From: Escherichia coli
GTDB lineage: Bacteria; Pseudomonadota; Gammaproteobacteria; Enterobacterales; Enterobacteriaceae
Assembly: GCA_025336685.1 (NCBI GenBank)
Contig: GCA_025336685.1_4717.1
Strand: one strand, 5' to 3'
Length of the DNA: 64,000 bases
Positions 25,503 through 32,940 of the stretch are shown piece after piece. The notes beneath the pieces were generated by a model, which saw only the letters and a list, made by a program, of their open reading frames with translations, did not search any database and was not told the DNA's origin. The number at the start of each line of letters is the position of its first letter. Within the stretch, counting starts at the first letter, position 1. The position numbers were made by a program, and so were the translations under genes.

Positions 25503-26228
25503 TTAAGACGTCGCCATCTTATCTTCCAGAGACTTCTTCGGTAAACCATGGATAACTCCTTCCGGGGTTAAGAACACACAGTCCGGATTCTGCGTTCGTG
25601 AGCGGTCGTCTGGACTGTTCAACGAGAACAGCAACGCAGAAATACCTTTTGTCCGATTTAATGCCGCTACGATCACGTCAAGCTGTCGCAGCGCATCCGA
25701 CACGGTTCGATGAGGAACAATACGTGACTGTTTGAAGCTGGCTAACCGCCAAGTCTCGAACAAACAACGCAGTTTAAACACGTCGGACGGAATAGCAGTA
25801 GATCCCTGTTCGATAACCTCAACACGATCAGCTTCAGGATAACCTACAGCAACCGCACTAAAGTGTCGTACCCCATTATGAAAATCATCGATAGATGCTT
25901 CGGCGTATTTACATACCGTGCCAGAAACGACCATCACTTTTGCTAAACCGCGATAATTGATCGTCAATGGAATACGAAATACGCGCAAAGCATGTTCTGG
26001 ATTTAATGAGACGTCGTTAACCTTTGTTGCGGTCAACTTACCACGCTCGTAACGTGCGGTGAACGGCAGCCCGTCATAAACGGGATTAATCACAACGCCC
26101 CCTGGGGAGGCGTTAGCGTTAAGATGGACATTAAGCCAATCGGATACTTCCTGTCTACTAGTTACGATTAACATAAAACGGTCCTCCATTTCTTTTCCTT
26201 CATTCATGGCGCATATCTTCCAAATCAT
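25503..26228 (-). CDS. hypothetical protein (241 aa)
   Basis: ORF, no motif. Confidence 0.45.
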   Translation of the reverse strand: MIWKICAMNEGKEMEDRFMLIVTSRQEVSDWLNVHLNANASPGGVVINPVYDGLPFTARYERGKLTATKVNDVSLNPEHALRVFRIPLTINYRGLAKVMVVSGTVCKYAEASIDDFHNGVRHFSAVAVGYPEADRVEVIEQGSTAIPSDVFKLRCLFETWRLASFKQSRIVPHRTVSDALRQLDVIVAALNRTKGISALLFSLNSPDDRSRTQNPDCVFLTPEGVIHGLPKKSLEDKMATS

Positions 26229-26850
26229 CCTTTTGTTTTGTAAATTCTGATTGCTTGCGATAAACCTCCCATGCGTCGTATAAACCGTAAAAGTTCAAAT
26301 GGCGTGCATTTAAGTTAACGGTGAATTCTTCCACAGAGGCAAAATCCGAACGAAGCATCGAATGGAAGGTGTCATCTCCAGTGCAGCCTCCGTATCCTTC
26401 ACCCTGATAGACCAAAAGCTGGTGAGGTTGGATACGTGCGGCAACCAATGCAGCTTGTGGTTCGTCGTAAGGCGGCCATGACAGTAGAATAACGTCGTAC
26501 TGTGAAAGATCGATGTTTGTGTAGTCGGCTTGCTGAATGTCCTCGATAAACGGGTGGGGATGTAATTCCGTATCGTAAGCGGTAATGTCCTCAACACCAA
26601 GTTTACGCAACACATAGGTCAGGTAACCCGTCCCACAACCCAGGTCAGCGACACGTCGCCCGTAACAGATGTTCGCTAACTGGAGCGCAGTATCCATGGT
26701 TAACAACGACCATCCAACGCGTTGTGTGTATTCTTCACGTACATCCCATTGTTGATGGAACGTCATGGGTTCTATGATATTAGCAAGCTGCTGGTACGGC
26801 AACGGCATTTTGGTTTCGCCTTGCGTGAGTAAAGCAATAACATCGTTCAT
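26200..26850 (-). CDS. class I SAM-dependent methyltransferase
   Basis: Motif I VADLGCGTGYLT, acidic residue after strand 2 (AYDTE), and a PPY tetrad (LLSWPPY) after strand 4; start MNDVIALL with AGGAAA SD. Confidence 0.6.
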   Translation of the reverse strand: MNDVIALLTQGETKMPLPYQQLANIIEPMTFHQQWDVREEYTQRVGWSLLTMDTALQLANICYGRRVADLGCGTGYLTYVLRKLGVEDITAYDTELHPHPFIEDIQQADYTNIDLSQYDVILLSWPPYDEPQAALVAARIQPHQLLVYQGEGYGGCTGDDTFHSMLRSDFASVEEFTVNLNARHLNFYGLYDAWEVYRKQSEFTKQKDDLEDMRHE

Positions 26851-26873
26851 TTTGTTTCCTTTTATCAGCATAA

Positions 26874-26894
26874 ACCCTCCCATACCGGGAGGGT
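26874..26894 (-). terminator. intrinsic terminator hairpin
   Basis: ACCCTCCC/GGGAGGGT stem, 5-nt loop, followed on the minus strand by UUUAUGCUG. Confidence 0.6.
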
Positions 26895-26898
26895 ACGA

Positions 26899-27327
26899 TT
26901 ATTCATTTTCAATAACTTTAAGATTCGGTGTGCCGAGCGTTTTCTTCACCAACGCCTCAGCAATGCGTTTCTCGATGAAATCGGTCGAATTGCTTCCGTC
27001 TATCGTACGCATATCACCACGGAAATTGTTGAAGACCATAAACAAATCACACCCGTCGATAGGTATCGCAAGATCATAACTGACTTGTGATGCGGTGAAA
27101 TGGACGCCAACGACAACGGCGGGAACGAATTCAACCGCCGTGTTATCCCCTTCTTCTCCGGTTCCGAATGGAAGTTCAACACGATCGCCGATAGAGAATT
27201 GAGTGACATCATTAATTGCGTTCGTTAATGCAATTCGTTGCATGTTAGCGATATTTTCATTATTCGCATCACAAGGTAGATCCAGGACTTCTTCCAATGT
27301 GAAGAATTTACGATCGAACCAGCTCAT
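26899..27327 (-). CDS. hypothetical protein (142 aa)
   Basis: ORF, no motif. Confidence 0.45.
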   Translation of the reverse strand: MSWFDRKFFTLEEVLDLPCDANNENIANMQRIALTNAINDVTQFSIGDRVELPFGTGEEGDNTAVEFVPAVVVGVHFTASQVSYDLAIPIDGCDLFMVFNNFRGDMRTIDGSNSTDFIEKRIAEALVKKTLGTPNLKVIENE

Positions 27328-27328
27328 G

Positions 27329-27862
27329 TTAATCTCCTTTGTGTTTTACGGACGATGTTAACCACGATGATCTTACAGTGAAACCCTCGGATTCATAGAA
27401 CGCCTGGGCTTCATCGTTATCGGCACGAACATCCAGGCCGATAGAATGACCACCACACTGGTAAGCGATGTTACGTGCTTCATTCATCAAGGCGTGACCG
27501 ATACCGCGCCCGCGATATTCGGGTTTTACAATAATCGATGTAACGTCATGAATGCCCATATGGCTCTCTGCGCTCACTTCCAAGAGGCCCACCGGCGTCG
27601 AAACGATAGCGTCGATCATAACGACCAGCATTGCGGCGTCCGGTAAACGCTTTTCTAATTCTAAGGAATCATATTCACGTTTTAAATCGGGAATATTCCC
27701 AAACATAAACGTGGTGCCCCACGCCTCCGATTCCGCATCATCGAGAATACGGTACAGTTCACGAATCTGTTGTTTATGTGGATAAAGATGTGGATCAGCG
27801 ACCGTCGAGGTGCTAATGCAAAAGAACGGTCGTTCGTTAATAACCAGTGTTTTGATGCTCAT
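27329..27862 (-). CDS. GNAT-family N-acetyltransferase
   Basis: Acetyl-CoA binding motif RGRGIGHALM and C-terminal AQAFYESEGF. Confidence 0.7.
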   Translation of the reverse strand: MSIKTLVINERPFFCISTSTVADPHLYPHKQQIRELYRILDDAESEAWGTTFMFGNIPDLKREYDSLELEKRLPDAAMLVVMIDAIVSTPVGLLEVSAESHMGIHDVTSIIVKPEYRGRGIGHALMNEARNIAYQCGGHSIGLDVRADNDEAQAFYESEGFTVRSSWLTSSVKHKGD

Positions 27863-28365
27863 GCTAAAATTCCTTCATTACCTAACAGTCGATTACGATG
27901 ACGTCGGTACATTTGACAAAGTGTTGTAATTTGATAAAGTTTGTTGTAACGTACTTCGATACGTTTTTGCACCTCTTTCCACGGAAGTTTATCGTATTGC
28001 CGATAACGATGGATTTCATTCAACATCCGAAGACGCGTAGGATCGGTATTCTTTATTGTTACGAGCTTCACGCGTTGGTATCCGCGCTGCAACCCCGATT
28101 CCGAATACGTAATGCCGAACTCATCCTGAATGATAGTAATGATCTCCCGCCATCGGCGCTTCTCACCGTCACGTAAATGGACAACCCGCGATAAGATATC
28201 GTTCCGATTACGATGACTCAGTTTAATGTTAAGCATTGAAGCAATCGCGCTGATTGCTCTCTGACTCCGTCCTAACGCATCACCGATCTCTTTCGATGTC
28301 ATGACGCCAGCGTTTCGGCGTATGAATGCGATTTCGGTTGTTGTGTATTCTTTACCTGCTGCCAT
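27859..28365 (-). CDS. Myb/SANT-like DNA-binding protein, paralog 6 (168 aa)
   Basis: Repeat pattern (Y/W)xxxExxxL...EIGDALGRSxxAIS and a third Trp-spaced repeat; member of the six-gene tandem family. Confidence 0.5.
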   Translation of the reverse strand: MAAGKEYTTTEIAFIRRNAGVMTSKEIGDALGRSQRAISAIASMLNIKLSHRNRNDILSRVVHLRDGEKRRWREIITIIQDEFGITYSESGLQRGYQRVKLVTIKNTDPTRLRMLNEIHRYRQYDKLPWKEVQKRIEVRYNKLYQITTLCQMYRRHRNRLLGNEGILA

Positions 28366-28829
28366 TTTTTACCACGTGTGTTATAATAGTAACGCTGACA
28401 AAGATGTGTGTGATGGTACTCCCGTTTGAACTCGACGTTGATAATGCGAGTAACTTCTCTCCATCTGACCCCTTCATGTCGCAGTGCTGTGATACGGTCT
28501 GAAATTTTGCACCATTCATCTGGGTCGTATCGTCGCAGTTTATGGCGTCGTATTACGGAGGCGACACTCGCTCTCGATCGGCCAAGATGGTTTGACAGTT
28601 GTTTAACCGAGTATCTGTGGATATTGTCGCGAATATAGGAAATCTCGTTGTTCGTATATGCCTCATTGGTTCTTGACGAAGGGAACAACATATACAACTT
28701 ATTCTTAATCGCGCTTTCTGTGCGTTGAAATACCGTAGTCAAATCACTAACTGGTGGTCTGGGTATCTGATCCGCGTAACTCTCAAGGCGTGAGAGTTCC
28801 TCATCTGTCCAGCGACGATACTTGCGCAT
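28299..28829 (-). CDS. Myb/SANT-like DNA-binding protein, paralog 5
   Basis: RRWTDEELSRL...LSNHLGRSRASVASV; start MRKYRRW with AAAGGAG SD (ORF track extends to 28913). Confidence 0.5.
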   Translation of the reverse strand: MRKYRRWTDEELSRLESYADQIPRPPVSDLTTVFQRTESAIKNKLYMLFPSSRTNEAYTNNEISYIRDNIHRYSVKQLSNHLGRSRASVASVIRRHKLRRYDPDEWCKISDRITALRHEGVRWREVTRIINVEFKREYHHTHLCQRYYYNTRGKKWQQVKNTQQPKSHSYAETLAS

Positions 28830-29304
28830 GGGCAACTCCTTTGTTTTTCGTGTAATAGCACCAACGTTGATACAACGCATGTTTATTCGTTGTAATCCCA
28901 AATTTAACAACAACGTCGTATGTGATAATATTCCAATTTTGGGTAACGTTAAGTCGTTCCGCGATAAACGCGATAATCGCTTCCCGTTCTTGCTTGGTTA
29001 ACGCACGACGAATTCCATTAAGTCGTATAAACTGACGAACCGAGTCATACGAACGGTTTAAATCATACGCAATCTCTCGCAATGATTTTTGTTTGATTAC
29101 AGACTTGATGTACGTTCGTTCCGCTTCCGTATACGGCCGATGCTTCTGACGTTGACGTATTCCCAAGCGTCCTAGACGCGCGTCGACGCTAGCGCGTGTT
29201 CGTCCTGCCTGTTGCGCGATTTCATCAATCGTCAGCGACGTGTTCAAATACAGATGCGTAACATCTTTCAGCTCGTCGTCACGCCATGGTTGAGATCGTC
29301 TCAT
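28801..29304 (-). CDS. Myb/SANT-like DNA-binding protein, paralog 4
   Basis: QPWRDDELKDV...IAQQAGRTRASVDARL...LREIAYDLNRSYDSV; AGAGGAG SD. Confidence 0.5.
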   Translation of the reverse strand: MRRSQPWRDDELKDVTHLYLNTSLTIDEIAQQAGRTRASVDARLGRLGIRQRQKHRPYTEAERTYIKSVIKQKSLREIAYDLNRSYDSVRQFIRLNGIRRALTKQEREAIIAFIAERLNVTQNWNIITYDVVVKFGITTNKHALYQRWCYYTKNKGVAHAQVSSLDR

Positions 29305-29782
29305 CTTGGACTCCTCTTTTCTTTCTATGATGCCACCAACGCTGATAGACAGCTTGCTTCGTCCGCGTTATACCAAAATGCGCATTAACCCGTTCAGCGA
29401 TATGGTACCAATCCTGCGTTTCTTCTAACAACGCATCAACGAAAGCTATGAAGATCTTAGTATCATCCTCGCTTAACCGCTTGAAACCATGGCGGTGTGC
29501 TATTGTTCGAATACTGTTTGGATCTCTGTTTAAATCGCGTGCGAGCTGTTTGTAACTTTTGTGCTTACAGTGTAGTCTGATATGTTCCAATTCGTCGGCG
29601 CTGAAACGTTTATGTGGTTTACGGCGTTCAACGTTTAAGTGCATCAACCTCGATTTAATTGCACCGTACGTTGTTTCCATGATTTCTGCGATTTCACGGA
29701 TTTTTAATTTCGGGTGACGGTAGTACAATTTCAACAACTGTTCATCGTACTCACGATTCCATCGTCGTACTGGAGGTTTCAC
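29279..29782 (-). CDS. Myb/SANT-like DNA-binding protein, paralog 3
   Basis: RRWNREYDEQLL...IAEIMETTYGAI...LARDLNRDPNSI; GTG start 2 nt after the upstream stop. Confidence 0.45.
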   Translation of the reverse strand: MKPPVRRWNREYDEQLLKLYYRHPKLKIREIAEIMETTYGAIKSRLMHLNVERRKPHKRFSADELEHIRLHCKHKSYKQLARDLNRDPNSIRTIAHRHGFKRLSEDDTKIFIAFVDALLEETQDWYHIAERVNAHFGITRTKQAVYQRWWHHRKKRGVQDETISTMA

Positions 29783-29784
29783 AA

Positions 29785-30264
29785 CTAGATTTCTCCTGTT
29801 CTACGCGTTTTTAATGCTTGAGTGTAGTAGAGTGTATGAACACCACTTAACGTGTAATGGGTGTTAAATTCGTTATTGATGATATTCTGTATTCTCTCCC
29901 AGGTTCTGTTCTCTTTTCTAAGCGCATGTATTCGGTGATAAATCATCTCTCGACGTTGCGCTTTGCAAGCAACAATACCGTAACGGTAGCAGAGTTTAGC
30001 GATTGCGTCCACGCTACGATTGAACATTACCGCGGCTTCTTTCACGCTGTGCGTCTTGAGATAATCGGCTAACATCACGCGTTCTTCGAAACAACAATAG
30101 CGATGACGCGACATGAGTTTCCAGCGCTTGCGATTACGGTTAATTCGACCTTGAACCGAACCTTCTGTTCGACCAAGCCGTTCCGCAATCTCTTGCATCG
30201 GTATACCGTTTCGGTACAGGGTAATCAACATCGCATCTTCTTCGGGTGTCCAGTCCTTGACCAT
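29785..30264 (-). CDS. Myb/SANT-like DNA-binding protein, paralog 2
   Basis: WTPEEDAMLITLYRNGIPMQEIAERLGRTEGSVQGRINRNRKRW: near-canonical Myb repeat with three spaced Trp. Confidence 0.55.
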   Translation of the reverse strand: MVKDWTPEEDAMLITLYRNGIPMQEIAERLGRTEGSVQGRINRNRKRWKLMSRHRYCCFEERVMLADYLKTHSVKEAAVMFNRSVDAIAKLCYRYGIVACKAQRREMIYHRIHALRKENRTWERIQNIINNEFNTHYTLSGVHTLYYTQALKTRRTGEI

Positions 30265-30276
30265 AGTACCACCCCA

Positions 30277-32940
<2,664 letters not shown>

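Follow-up and report, generated by a model that had tools for sequence, protein, structure and literature searches.

In methyltransferases that modify N6 of adenine, N4 of cytosine or N5 of glutamine, the Asp, Asn or Ser residue of motif IV accepts a hydrogen bond from the exocyclic or target amine. PrmC/HemK (NPPY), METTL5 (NPPF), KsgA/Erm (N-L/I-P-Y) and the gamma-class Type II methyltransferases present their motifs in the order X, I, II, III, IV, and the same order is found in the predicted S-adenosylmethionine (SAM)-dependent methyltransferase described here, which is encoded at positions 26200..26883 on the minus strand (longest open reading frame (ORF), 227 residues) of a 64,000-nucleotide stretch of DNA, hereafter the window (contig GCA_025336685.1_4717.1 of assembly GCA_025336685.1, assigned to Escherichia coli). 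In this protein and in its family motif IV reads WPPY, and the catalytic loop breaks the rule for PPY methyltransferases. Across gp110-gp114 the window shares 91.2% nucleotide identity with Escherichia phage vB_EcoM_Goslar, a nucleus-forming jumbo phage, and its source is a distinct Goslar-like phage (~91% nucleotide identity). The gene itself, the orthologue of Goslar gp111, is an already deposited and generically annotated ORF of Goslar-like phages (91.6% amino acid identity to Goslar YP_009820796, 'class I SAM-dependent methyltransferase'); the interest lies in a very large, virus-enriched branch of class I enzymes, recognized here by its non-canonical motif IV and by a Cys-containing loop coupled to it.

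The encoded protein is predicted to be a SAM-dependent class I methyltransferase, as the original prediction had proposed from its motif I, and both structural modelling and residue conservation argue for this assignment. The AlphaFold2 (AF2) model of the window protein, built with 40 homologues, reached a predicted local distance difference test score (pLDDT) of 87.6 and a predicted template-modelling score (pTM) of 0.85 with a class I Rossmann layout, and that of a typical family member reached a pLDDT of 89.4. In both models seven strands follow one another in class I order, with strands and helices alternating as expected, and Foldseek searches with the two models returned many class I methyltransferases at a probability of 1.0. 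The SAM-binding glycine loop after strand beta1 (78-81) is formed by motif I, VADLGCGTGYL (residues 78-88; 26620..26652, minus strand); generic methyltransferase hidden Markov models (HMMs) match in this region, and G82, G84 and G86 of the DLGCGTG core (residues 80-86) are 92-96% conserved. In class I methyltransferases the acidic residue ending strand beta2 binds the ribose hydroxyls of SAM. According to the alignment and the AF2 model, this position at the end of beta2 (100-104) is held by Asp104 of motif II (26572..26574, minus strand), which is invariant in alignment A1 and 97-98% conserved across the family. One homologue from IMG/VR (UViG_3300037845_000029, L043:6498-8393) carries an intein of ~400 residues exactly in the SAM-binding loop, with the extein residues GAG and TGYW flanking an intein that begins with C and ends with HN.

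The tetrad W136-P137-P138-Y139 (26467..26478, minus strand), part of the string LLSWPPY at residues 133-139, follows directly after strand beta4 (131-135) in the AF2 model. Alignment of the family profile with E. coli PrmC by hhalign placed LLSWPPYDE on IVSNPPYID with a probability of 90.9%, so that WPPY fell on PrmC N183-P-P-Y186, and a profile search of the PDB aligned the WPPY segment on NLPK of Trm5b. As judged from model and alignments, WPPY is thus predicted to sit in the canonical motif IV catalytic loop next to the SAM site. The original prediction had placed a PPY tetrad at motif IV of the amino-methyltransferases and had named a PPY loop far from the SAM pocket as the outcome that would speak against it; the model topology bears the placement out and does not show such a separation. 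The replacement of the usual Asp, Asn or Ser by Trp, also noticed at that stage, is real: among ~200 family domain instances W136 is conserved in 97%, P137 in 98%, P138 in 85% and Y139 in 94%, and the window protein itself has Trp rather than Asp, Asn or Ser as the first residue of the motif. Where family domains have lost the Trp they carry Gly instead, in degenerate copies. The possibility that Trp marks a degenerate, inactive motif, as EPPL does in METTL14, was considered and rejected, since the 97% conservation and the coupling to the Cys loop described below argue for a function.

This second loop, G161-E-G-Y-G-G-C167-T-G-D-D171 (26371..26403, minus strand), occupies the motif VI position after strand beta5 (156-161) and is the signature of the family, with conservation of 98% for E162, 95% for C167, 90% for T168 and 77-84% for D170 and D171. 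Of 198 domains, 191 contain both Cys167 and Trp136, and in the four that have lost Trp the entire Cys loop is absent as well; because of this co-occurrence and joint loss, Trp136 and the Cys loop appear to behave as one functional unit. WPPY(-D) at motif IV together with G-E-G-x-G-G-C-T-G-D-D after beta5 can be taken, at the level of sequence, to define the family. Further conserved residues are R49, W58, Y87, F173, F/W198 and D203, and the loop PxWxGIHD is conserved as strongly as the SAM site. Combining the model topology with this conservation, we infer a pocket rich in aromatic (W58, Y87, W136, Y139, F/W198) and acidic (E162, D170, D171, D203) residues, with one Cys. In three family sequences with IGPLxEQP the WPPY tetrad is gone and the GxGGCTGDD loop is deleted while Glu162 is retained; these paralogues may be inactive or repurposed copies.

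Sequence searches revealed a family of considerable size. A word-indexed search recovered 47 homologues of the window methyltransferase, and an HMM scan of 1.84 billion representatives matched 8,443 clusters (50% identity) at E<=1e-3, of which 2,422 reached E<=1e-30, so that the family comprises at least 8,443 clusters at this identity level. Its proteins are mostly ~170-230 residues long, typical members having 173-200, and their core of 173-230 residues extends no further than strand beta7. The sole library family that spans the catalytic half is phrog_19090, which matches residues 46-209 of the query at 2e-18 and carries no functional annotation. Pfam, NCBIfam and PADLOC gave only sub-threshold generic matches centred on motif I for the query; the generic Methyltransf_23 was the only Pfam match among family representatives (86 of 146), an NCBIfam scan of ten family members returned no match to the methyltransferase domain, and no dedicated Pfam or NCBIfam model was found. 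Searches of the PDB by phmmer and by profile gave matches driven by motif I only (E 1e-3 to 1e-4). The Rossmann domain of KtrA, the top PDB profile match, was rejected as an artefact. With a profile of the catalytic half, from motif IV to the C-terminus, nothing in the PDB was found at E<=10, and the PDB sequence searches returned nothing resembling the GEGxGGCTGDD loop. At the structural level, the Foldseek matches of the two models were class I enzymes all at template-modelling (TM) scores of ~0.4-0.57, below 0.6, and of no consistent substrate class. The literature yielded no mention of WPPY methyltransferases, GGCTGDD, Goslar gp111 or SAM methyltransferases of Chimalliviridae.

Homologues were found in jumbo phages of Aeromonas, Klebsiella, Salmonella, Xanthomonas, Pseudomonas and Stenotrophomonas and in the haloarchaeal viruses PhiCh1, phiH and HGTV-1, and one homologue locus (L060) lies on a contig of a giant-virus metagenome-assembled genome (MAG). 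Proteins of Klosneuvirinae giant viruses matched by structure (TM 0.52-0.68, 12-21% identity). Pattern scans detected 48 loci in IMG/VR and 8, all on MAG contigs, among 185,579 prokaryotic species, each represented by one genome. The family hence appears, on sequence grounds, to be a very large, virus-enriched branch of class I SAM enzymes for which no prior characterization was found. The WPPY domain also occurs fused to NADAR, GNAT and DUF2786 domains and to TPR repeats (in MAGs of Obscuribacterales and Proteobacteria), and as two and four tandem copies in proteins of 610 and 1,932 residues (fusion and tandem members P0104, P0068, P0064, P0070, P0051, P0048 and L006-L008). TPR repeats bind proteins, and TPR fusions account for five family proteins. 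The NADAR, GNAT and DUF2786 fusions and the tandem copies give divergent hints.

We regard the gene product as a putative active, stand-alone SAM-dependent class I methyltransferase of this viral family; it is highly probable that this is a true enzyme, that its viral family is an orphan one and that its action does not depend on the GNAT acetyltransferase encoded two genes upstream. Since Trp stands in place of the hydrogen-bond-accepting Asp, Asn or Ser, the standard mechanism of DNA and RNA amino-methyltransferases would not be used. The acceptor would rather be a cationic or neutral group outside nucleic acids, and our guess is an amine of a host or phage protein (Lys or the N-terminus) or a small cationic metabolite. 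What favours this choice is the predicted pocket, with its aromatic and acidic residues and single Cys, together with the acidity of the proteins and the occurrence of TPR fusions. The query has an isoelectric point (pI) of 4.7 and a net charge of -16, the family median pI is 5.4, and the conserved columns of the family include two basic and seven acidic positions. A protein amine or small cationic molecule as substrate is put forward with low confidence, as something less than an even chance, and the explanation in its entirety, an orphan viral enzyme independent of the GNAT plus this substrate class, appears about equally likely to be right or wrong.

Several observations weigh against the proposed substrate. 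The weak matches that reach motif IV are mostly nucleic-acid amino-methyltransferases, namely METTL5, KsgA/Erm/Dim1 and the PADLOC models MTase_II and mad2, and small partner-dependent ribosomal RNA (rRNA) methyltransferases of the METTL5 type likewise have no recognition domain. In Natrialba virus PhiCh1 the homologue ORF83 (L004:3899-4474) lies directly after the genes of the putative DNA methyltransferases M.PhiCh1-II (m5C) and M.PhiCh1-III (m4C). NADAR domains act in nucleic-acid ADP-ribose chemistry, and one NADAR fusion is present in the family. Furthermore, acidity is a soft argument for a substrate class. Going by annotation, the phiH homologue also follows two DNA methyltransferase genes.

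Nucleic acids therefore have to be weighed as targets. The enzyme might methylate RNA bases in the rRNA or transfer RNA of host or phage. It would then resemble the small enzymes METTL5 or RsmD or the KsgA/Erm catalytic domain, and a structured ribonucleoprotein, not a recognition domain of its own, would lead it to its target. The size of the protein is near that of METTL5 (209 residues), a phmmer match in the PDB that spans motifs I-IV (E 0.002); KsgA, Erm and Dim1 were the top Foldseek matches of the typical member, with METTL5 also among them; sub-threshold RrnaAD and ksgA matches cover residues 49-145; and the RNA-repair genes RlaP and LigT were each found twice among 253 neighbour ORFs. 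However, these matches are weak (TM ~0.5, no E-value below 1e-5) and do not surpass those to small-molecule and protein methyltransferases, 97% of members have Trp where N(L/I)PY or NPPF has its Asn or Asp hydrogen-bond acceptor, the model lacks a counterpart of the C-terminal RNA-binding domain of KsgA/Erm, and the acidic family conserves only two basic positions, which leaves an RNA target unlikely. DNA is a still weaker candidate. A DNA amino-methyltransferase that shields phage DNA from restriction would fit the PPY tetrad at motif IV, the PADLOC matches to Type II methyltransferases and mad2 (~6e-6, residues 66-139) and the position of the PhiCh1 homologue, but typical members give no PADLOC match, and the target-recognition domain such an enzyme would need is lacking, as typical members end at beta7 and the model of one of them adds only three short N-terminal helices. 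Nucleus-forming phages, moreover, shield their DNA physically. According to the original description of Goslar, its DNA is digested by ordinary restriction enzymes (PMC6563267). With no target-recognition domain, an acidic protein and Trp in place of the hydrogen-bond acceptor, a role as a DNA methylase, one of the substrates the original prediction had left open, is considered very unlikely; the same arguments weaken the case for an RNA target.

Other readings concern the chemistry rather than the type of acceptor. Cys167 might support an unusual reaction, either covalent methylation of pyrimidine C5 (m5U- or m5C-like) or a metal-assisted transfer of the COMT type through the cluster of Glu, two Asp and Cys. 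COMT binds Mg2+ at positions after beta4 and beta5; in the window protein acidic residues follow beta4 (D140) and beta5 (E162, D170, D171), COMT is among the Foldseek matches, and the m5U methyltransferases 8z62 and 2jjq are among the fold matches with the lowest root-mean-square deviation (4.7, at a weak TM of 0.54). Cys167 shows 95% conservation, lies in a Gly-rich loop just past beta5 and is coupled to Trp136, which is consistent with such a role. On the other hand, the Cys lies six residues past beta5, whereas in TrmA/RumA and NSUN enzymes the distance is two or three; motif IV is WPPY, with neither DPPR nor PC; the acidic protein has no RNA-binding domain; and the fold matches are no better than those to other classes, so the chance of Cys167-dependent chemistry is judged to be slim. 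Least probable of all is that the protein binds SAM without catalysis, or consumes it without transfer, and in this way serves counter-defence by lowering or sensing host SAM. In its favour, support for the SAM-binding motifs exceeds that for any acceptor site, motif IV lacks the usual catalytic Asp or Asn, and in many phages the gene stands among accessory and early-type genes; yet the acceptor-side loops WPPY, GEGxGGCTGDD and PxWxGIHD equal the SAM site in conservation, and catalysis on a defined substrate is therefore to be expected rather than binding alone. A bolder extension of the idea of an orphan viral enzyme, which we consider improbable, is that the WPPY/GEGxGGCTGDD proteins form a virus-specific class performing a reaction new to class I SAM enzymes on a universal host target. 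A Trp-Tyr clamp, the invariant Cys and the acidic loop would then act on that target, possibly a protein of the translation machinery, a cation resembling polyamines or a signalling molecule derived from a nucleotide, and the enzyme would be a common tool of host takeover or counter-defence for viruses of bacteria, archaea and eukaryotes.

The second gene upstream of the methyltransferase encodes a GNAT N-acetyltransferase of 177 residues (27329..27862, minus strand), the orthologue of Goslar gp113 ('acetyltransferase', 89.8% amino acid identity), and one further minus-strand ORF lies between the two, as originally reported. It is predicted to be an ordinary acetyl-coenzyme A (CoA)-dependent acetyltransferase, and its assignment to the GNAT superfamily is firmly supported by matches to Pfam Acetyltransf_1 (56.6 bits, cut-off 20.7; 4e-15), Acetyltransf_7 (50.5 bits, cut-off 27) and the phrog_3810 acetyltransferase family (1e-16) and by the acetyl-CoA motif RGRGIG, which was read intact from the sequence at residues 117-122 (27497-27514, minus strand). 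In the PDB and NCBIfam its closest matches are to generic members of the superfamily (RimI, Ard1, SpeG, PaiA, YpeA), all below family cut-offs, with 54.7 bits against a cut-off of 86.4 for the RimI model. With RimI, Ard1/Naa, SpeG, PaiA and YpeA the protein shares the R-x-x-G-x-G CoA loop, whereas its ~60 N-terminal residues are lineage-specific.

The suggestion that the methyltransferase and the GNAT, perhaps together with the protein encoded between them, constitute one modification module with a common host or phage macromolecule as target did not survive the comparison of loci. In its favour, and counting against an independent methyltransferase, the three genes run in one direction and lie 1 nt and 15-27 nt apart, the order of GNAT, a 147-residue gene and methyltransferase is retained in Goslar-like phages whose GNAT identity is as low as 83%, and one protein, P0068, joins a GNAT domain to a WPPY methyltransferase domain. 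Proximity carries little weight, however, because the whole region is a single co-directional gene array extending from 23 kb to past 32 kb of the window, and the adjacency was not seen outside Goslar-like phages: the +-8 kb around the methyltransferase homologue yielded no GNAT in any of 47 other locus groups. When the window GNAT and the corresponding half of P0068 were searched with jackhmmer against all 3,638 ORFs of the +-8 kb loci, only loci of the Goslar type were matched, Pfam scans of the 253 neighbour ORFs (44 loci) found no GNAT and no recurring family, and blastp clustering of neighbours from 48 locus groups found no partner in more than three groups. Like RlaP and LigT, sigma-70 occurred twice among the 253 neighbour ORFs, and on three long metagenomic contigs only small hypothetical phage genes surround the homologue. 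A word-based search with the window GNAT returned Goslar-like phages only. In the ~300-kb Klebsiella and Serratia phages KpLz_1_41, MJ359, LPKP23 and KpYy_2_45 homologues of both genes are present, but 194-198 kb apart. P0068 is the lone fusion of GNAT and methyltransferase found; its GNAT half has nothing but the generic CoA motif in common with the window GNAT, and a word-based search with this half found no relatives. The GNAT beside the methyltransferase hence appears to be a feature of the Goslar lineage and not a conserved module, and a joint function of the two is rated quite improbable.

The gene between them (26899..27327, minus strand, from the ORF list) encodes an acidic protein of 142 residues (pI 4.3), the orthologue of Goslar gp112 (annotated as hypothetical), for which no match was found in Pfam, PHROG, NCBIfam or PADLOC and whose homologues were found only in Goslar (gp112, 93% identity) and Erwinia phage Bue1. 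The methyltransferase is likelier to start at the second ATG (26871, residue M5), giving 223 residues, because GGGAGG precedes this codon and the annotated start in Goslar agrees with it. Between the stop codon of the gp112-like gene and the methyltransferase start lies a GC hairpin with an 8-bp stem, ACCCUCCC-N5-GGGAGGGU (26874..26894, minus strand), with a folding energy of -16.2 kcal/mol (z = -3.0), whose 3' arm holds the Shine-Dalgarno sequence for the ATG at 26871. In four Goslar-like phages the stem is invariant and the loop varies, and the hairpin may be a candidate translational or transcript-processing element.

The upstream end of the co-directional array is formed by the gene of a 689-residue NAD-dependent DNA ligase (30590-32659, minus strand), the orthologue of Goslar gp121. 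Six tandem paralogous genes (27859-30624, minus strand) sit between the ligase and the GNAT; as listed, they encode 115-204 residues with 20-32% identity to the first copy. Each paralogue consists of two or three helix-turn-helix repeats of ~45 residues that resemble SANT/Myb, GcrA or sigma region 4, and the array matches phrog_323 ('transcriptional regulator, D5-like'; best 2e-16). The same array is present in Goslar (gp114-119) and in more distant relatives.

Finding the substrate of the WPPY enzymes would give a function to thousands of viral genes and might reveal a host-modification or counter-defence activity common to several virus lineages. Goslar and E. coli offer a tractable system for this family.

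Comparison with the described systems places the window protein as follows. The three genes are orthologous to Goslar gp111-gp112-gp113 and are arranged in identical order. The single-domain methyltransferases METTL21A, NTM1, CypM, ToxA, TehB, UbiG and COMT are similar in size and are top Foldseek matches, at TM 0.4-0.57 and 11-18% identity, and none of them carries WPPY or GGCTGDD. From KsgA/Erm/Dim1 the protein is set apart by the lack of the C-terminal helical domain and by Trp in place of Asn; with a TM of ~0.5 and a weak Pfam RrnaAD match (E 0.054; 13 bits, cut-off 24), it does not belong to that family. The (D/N/S)PP(Y/F/W) amino-methyltransferases provide the best, though weak, matches of the query in both sequence and fold. 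Like these enzymes, the window protein has a Pro-Pro-aromatic loop directly after beta4; unlike them, its family is acidic, has no target-recognition or RNA-binding domain, and combines Trp as the first residue of this loop with a Cys-containing Gly-rich loop after beta5.

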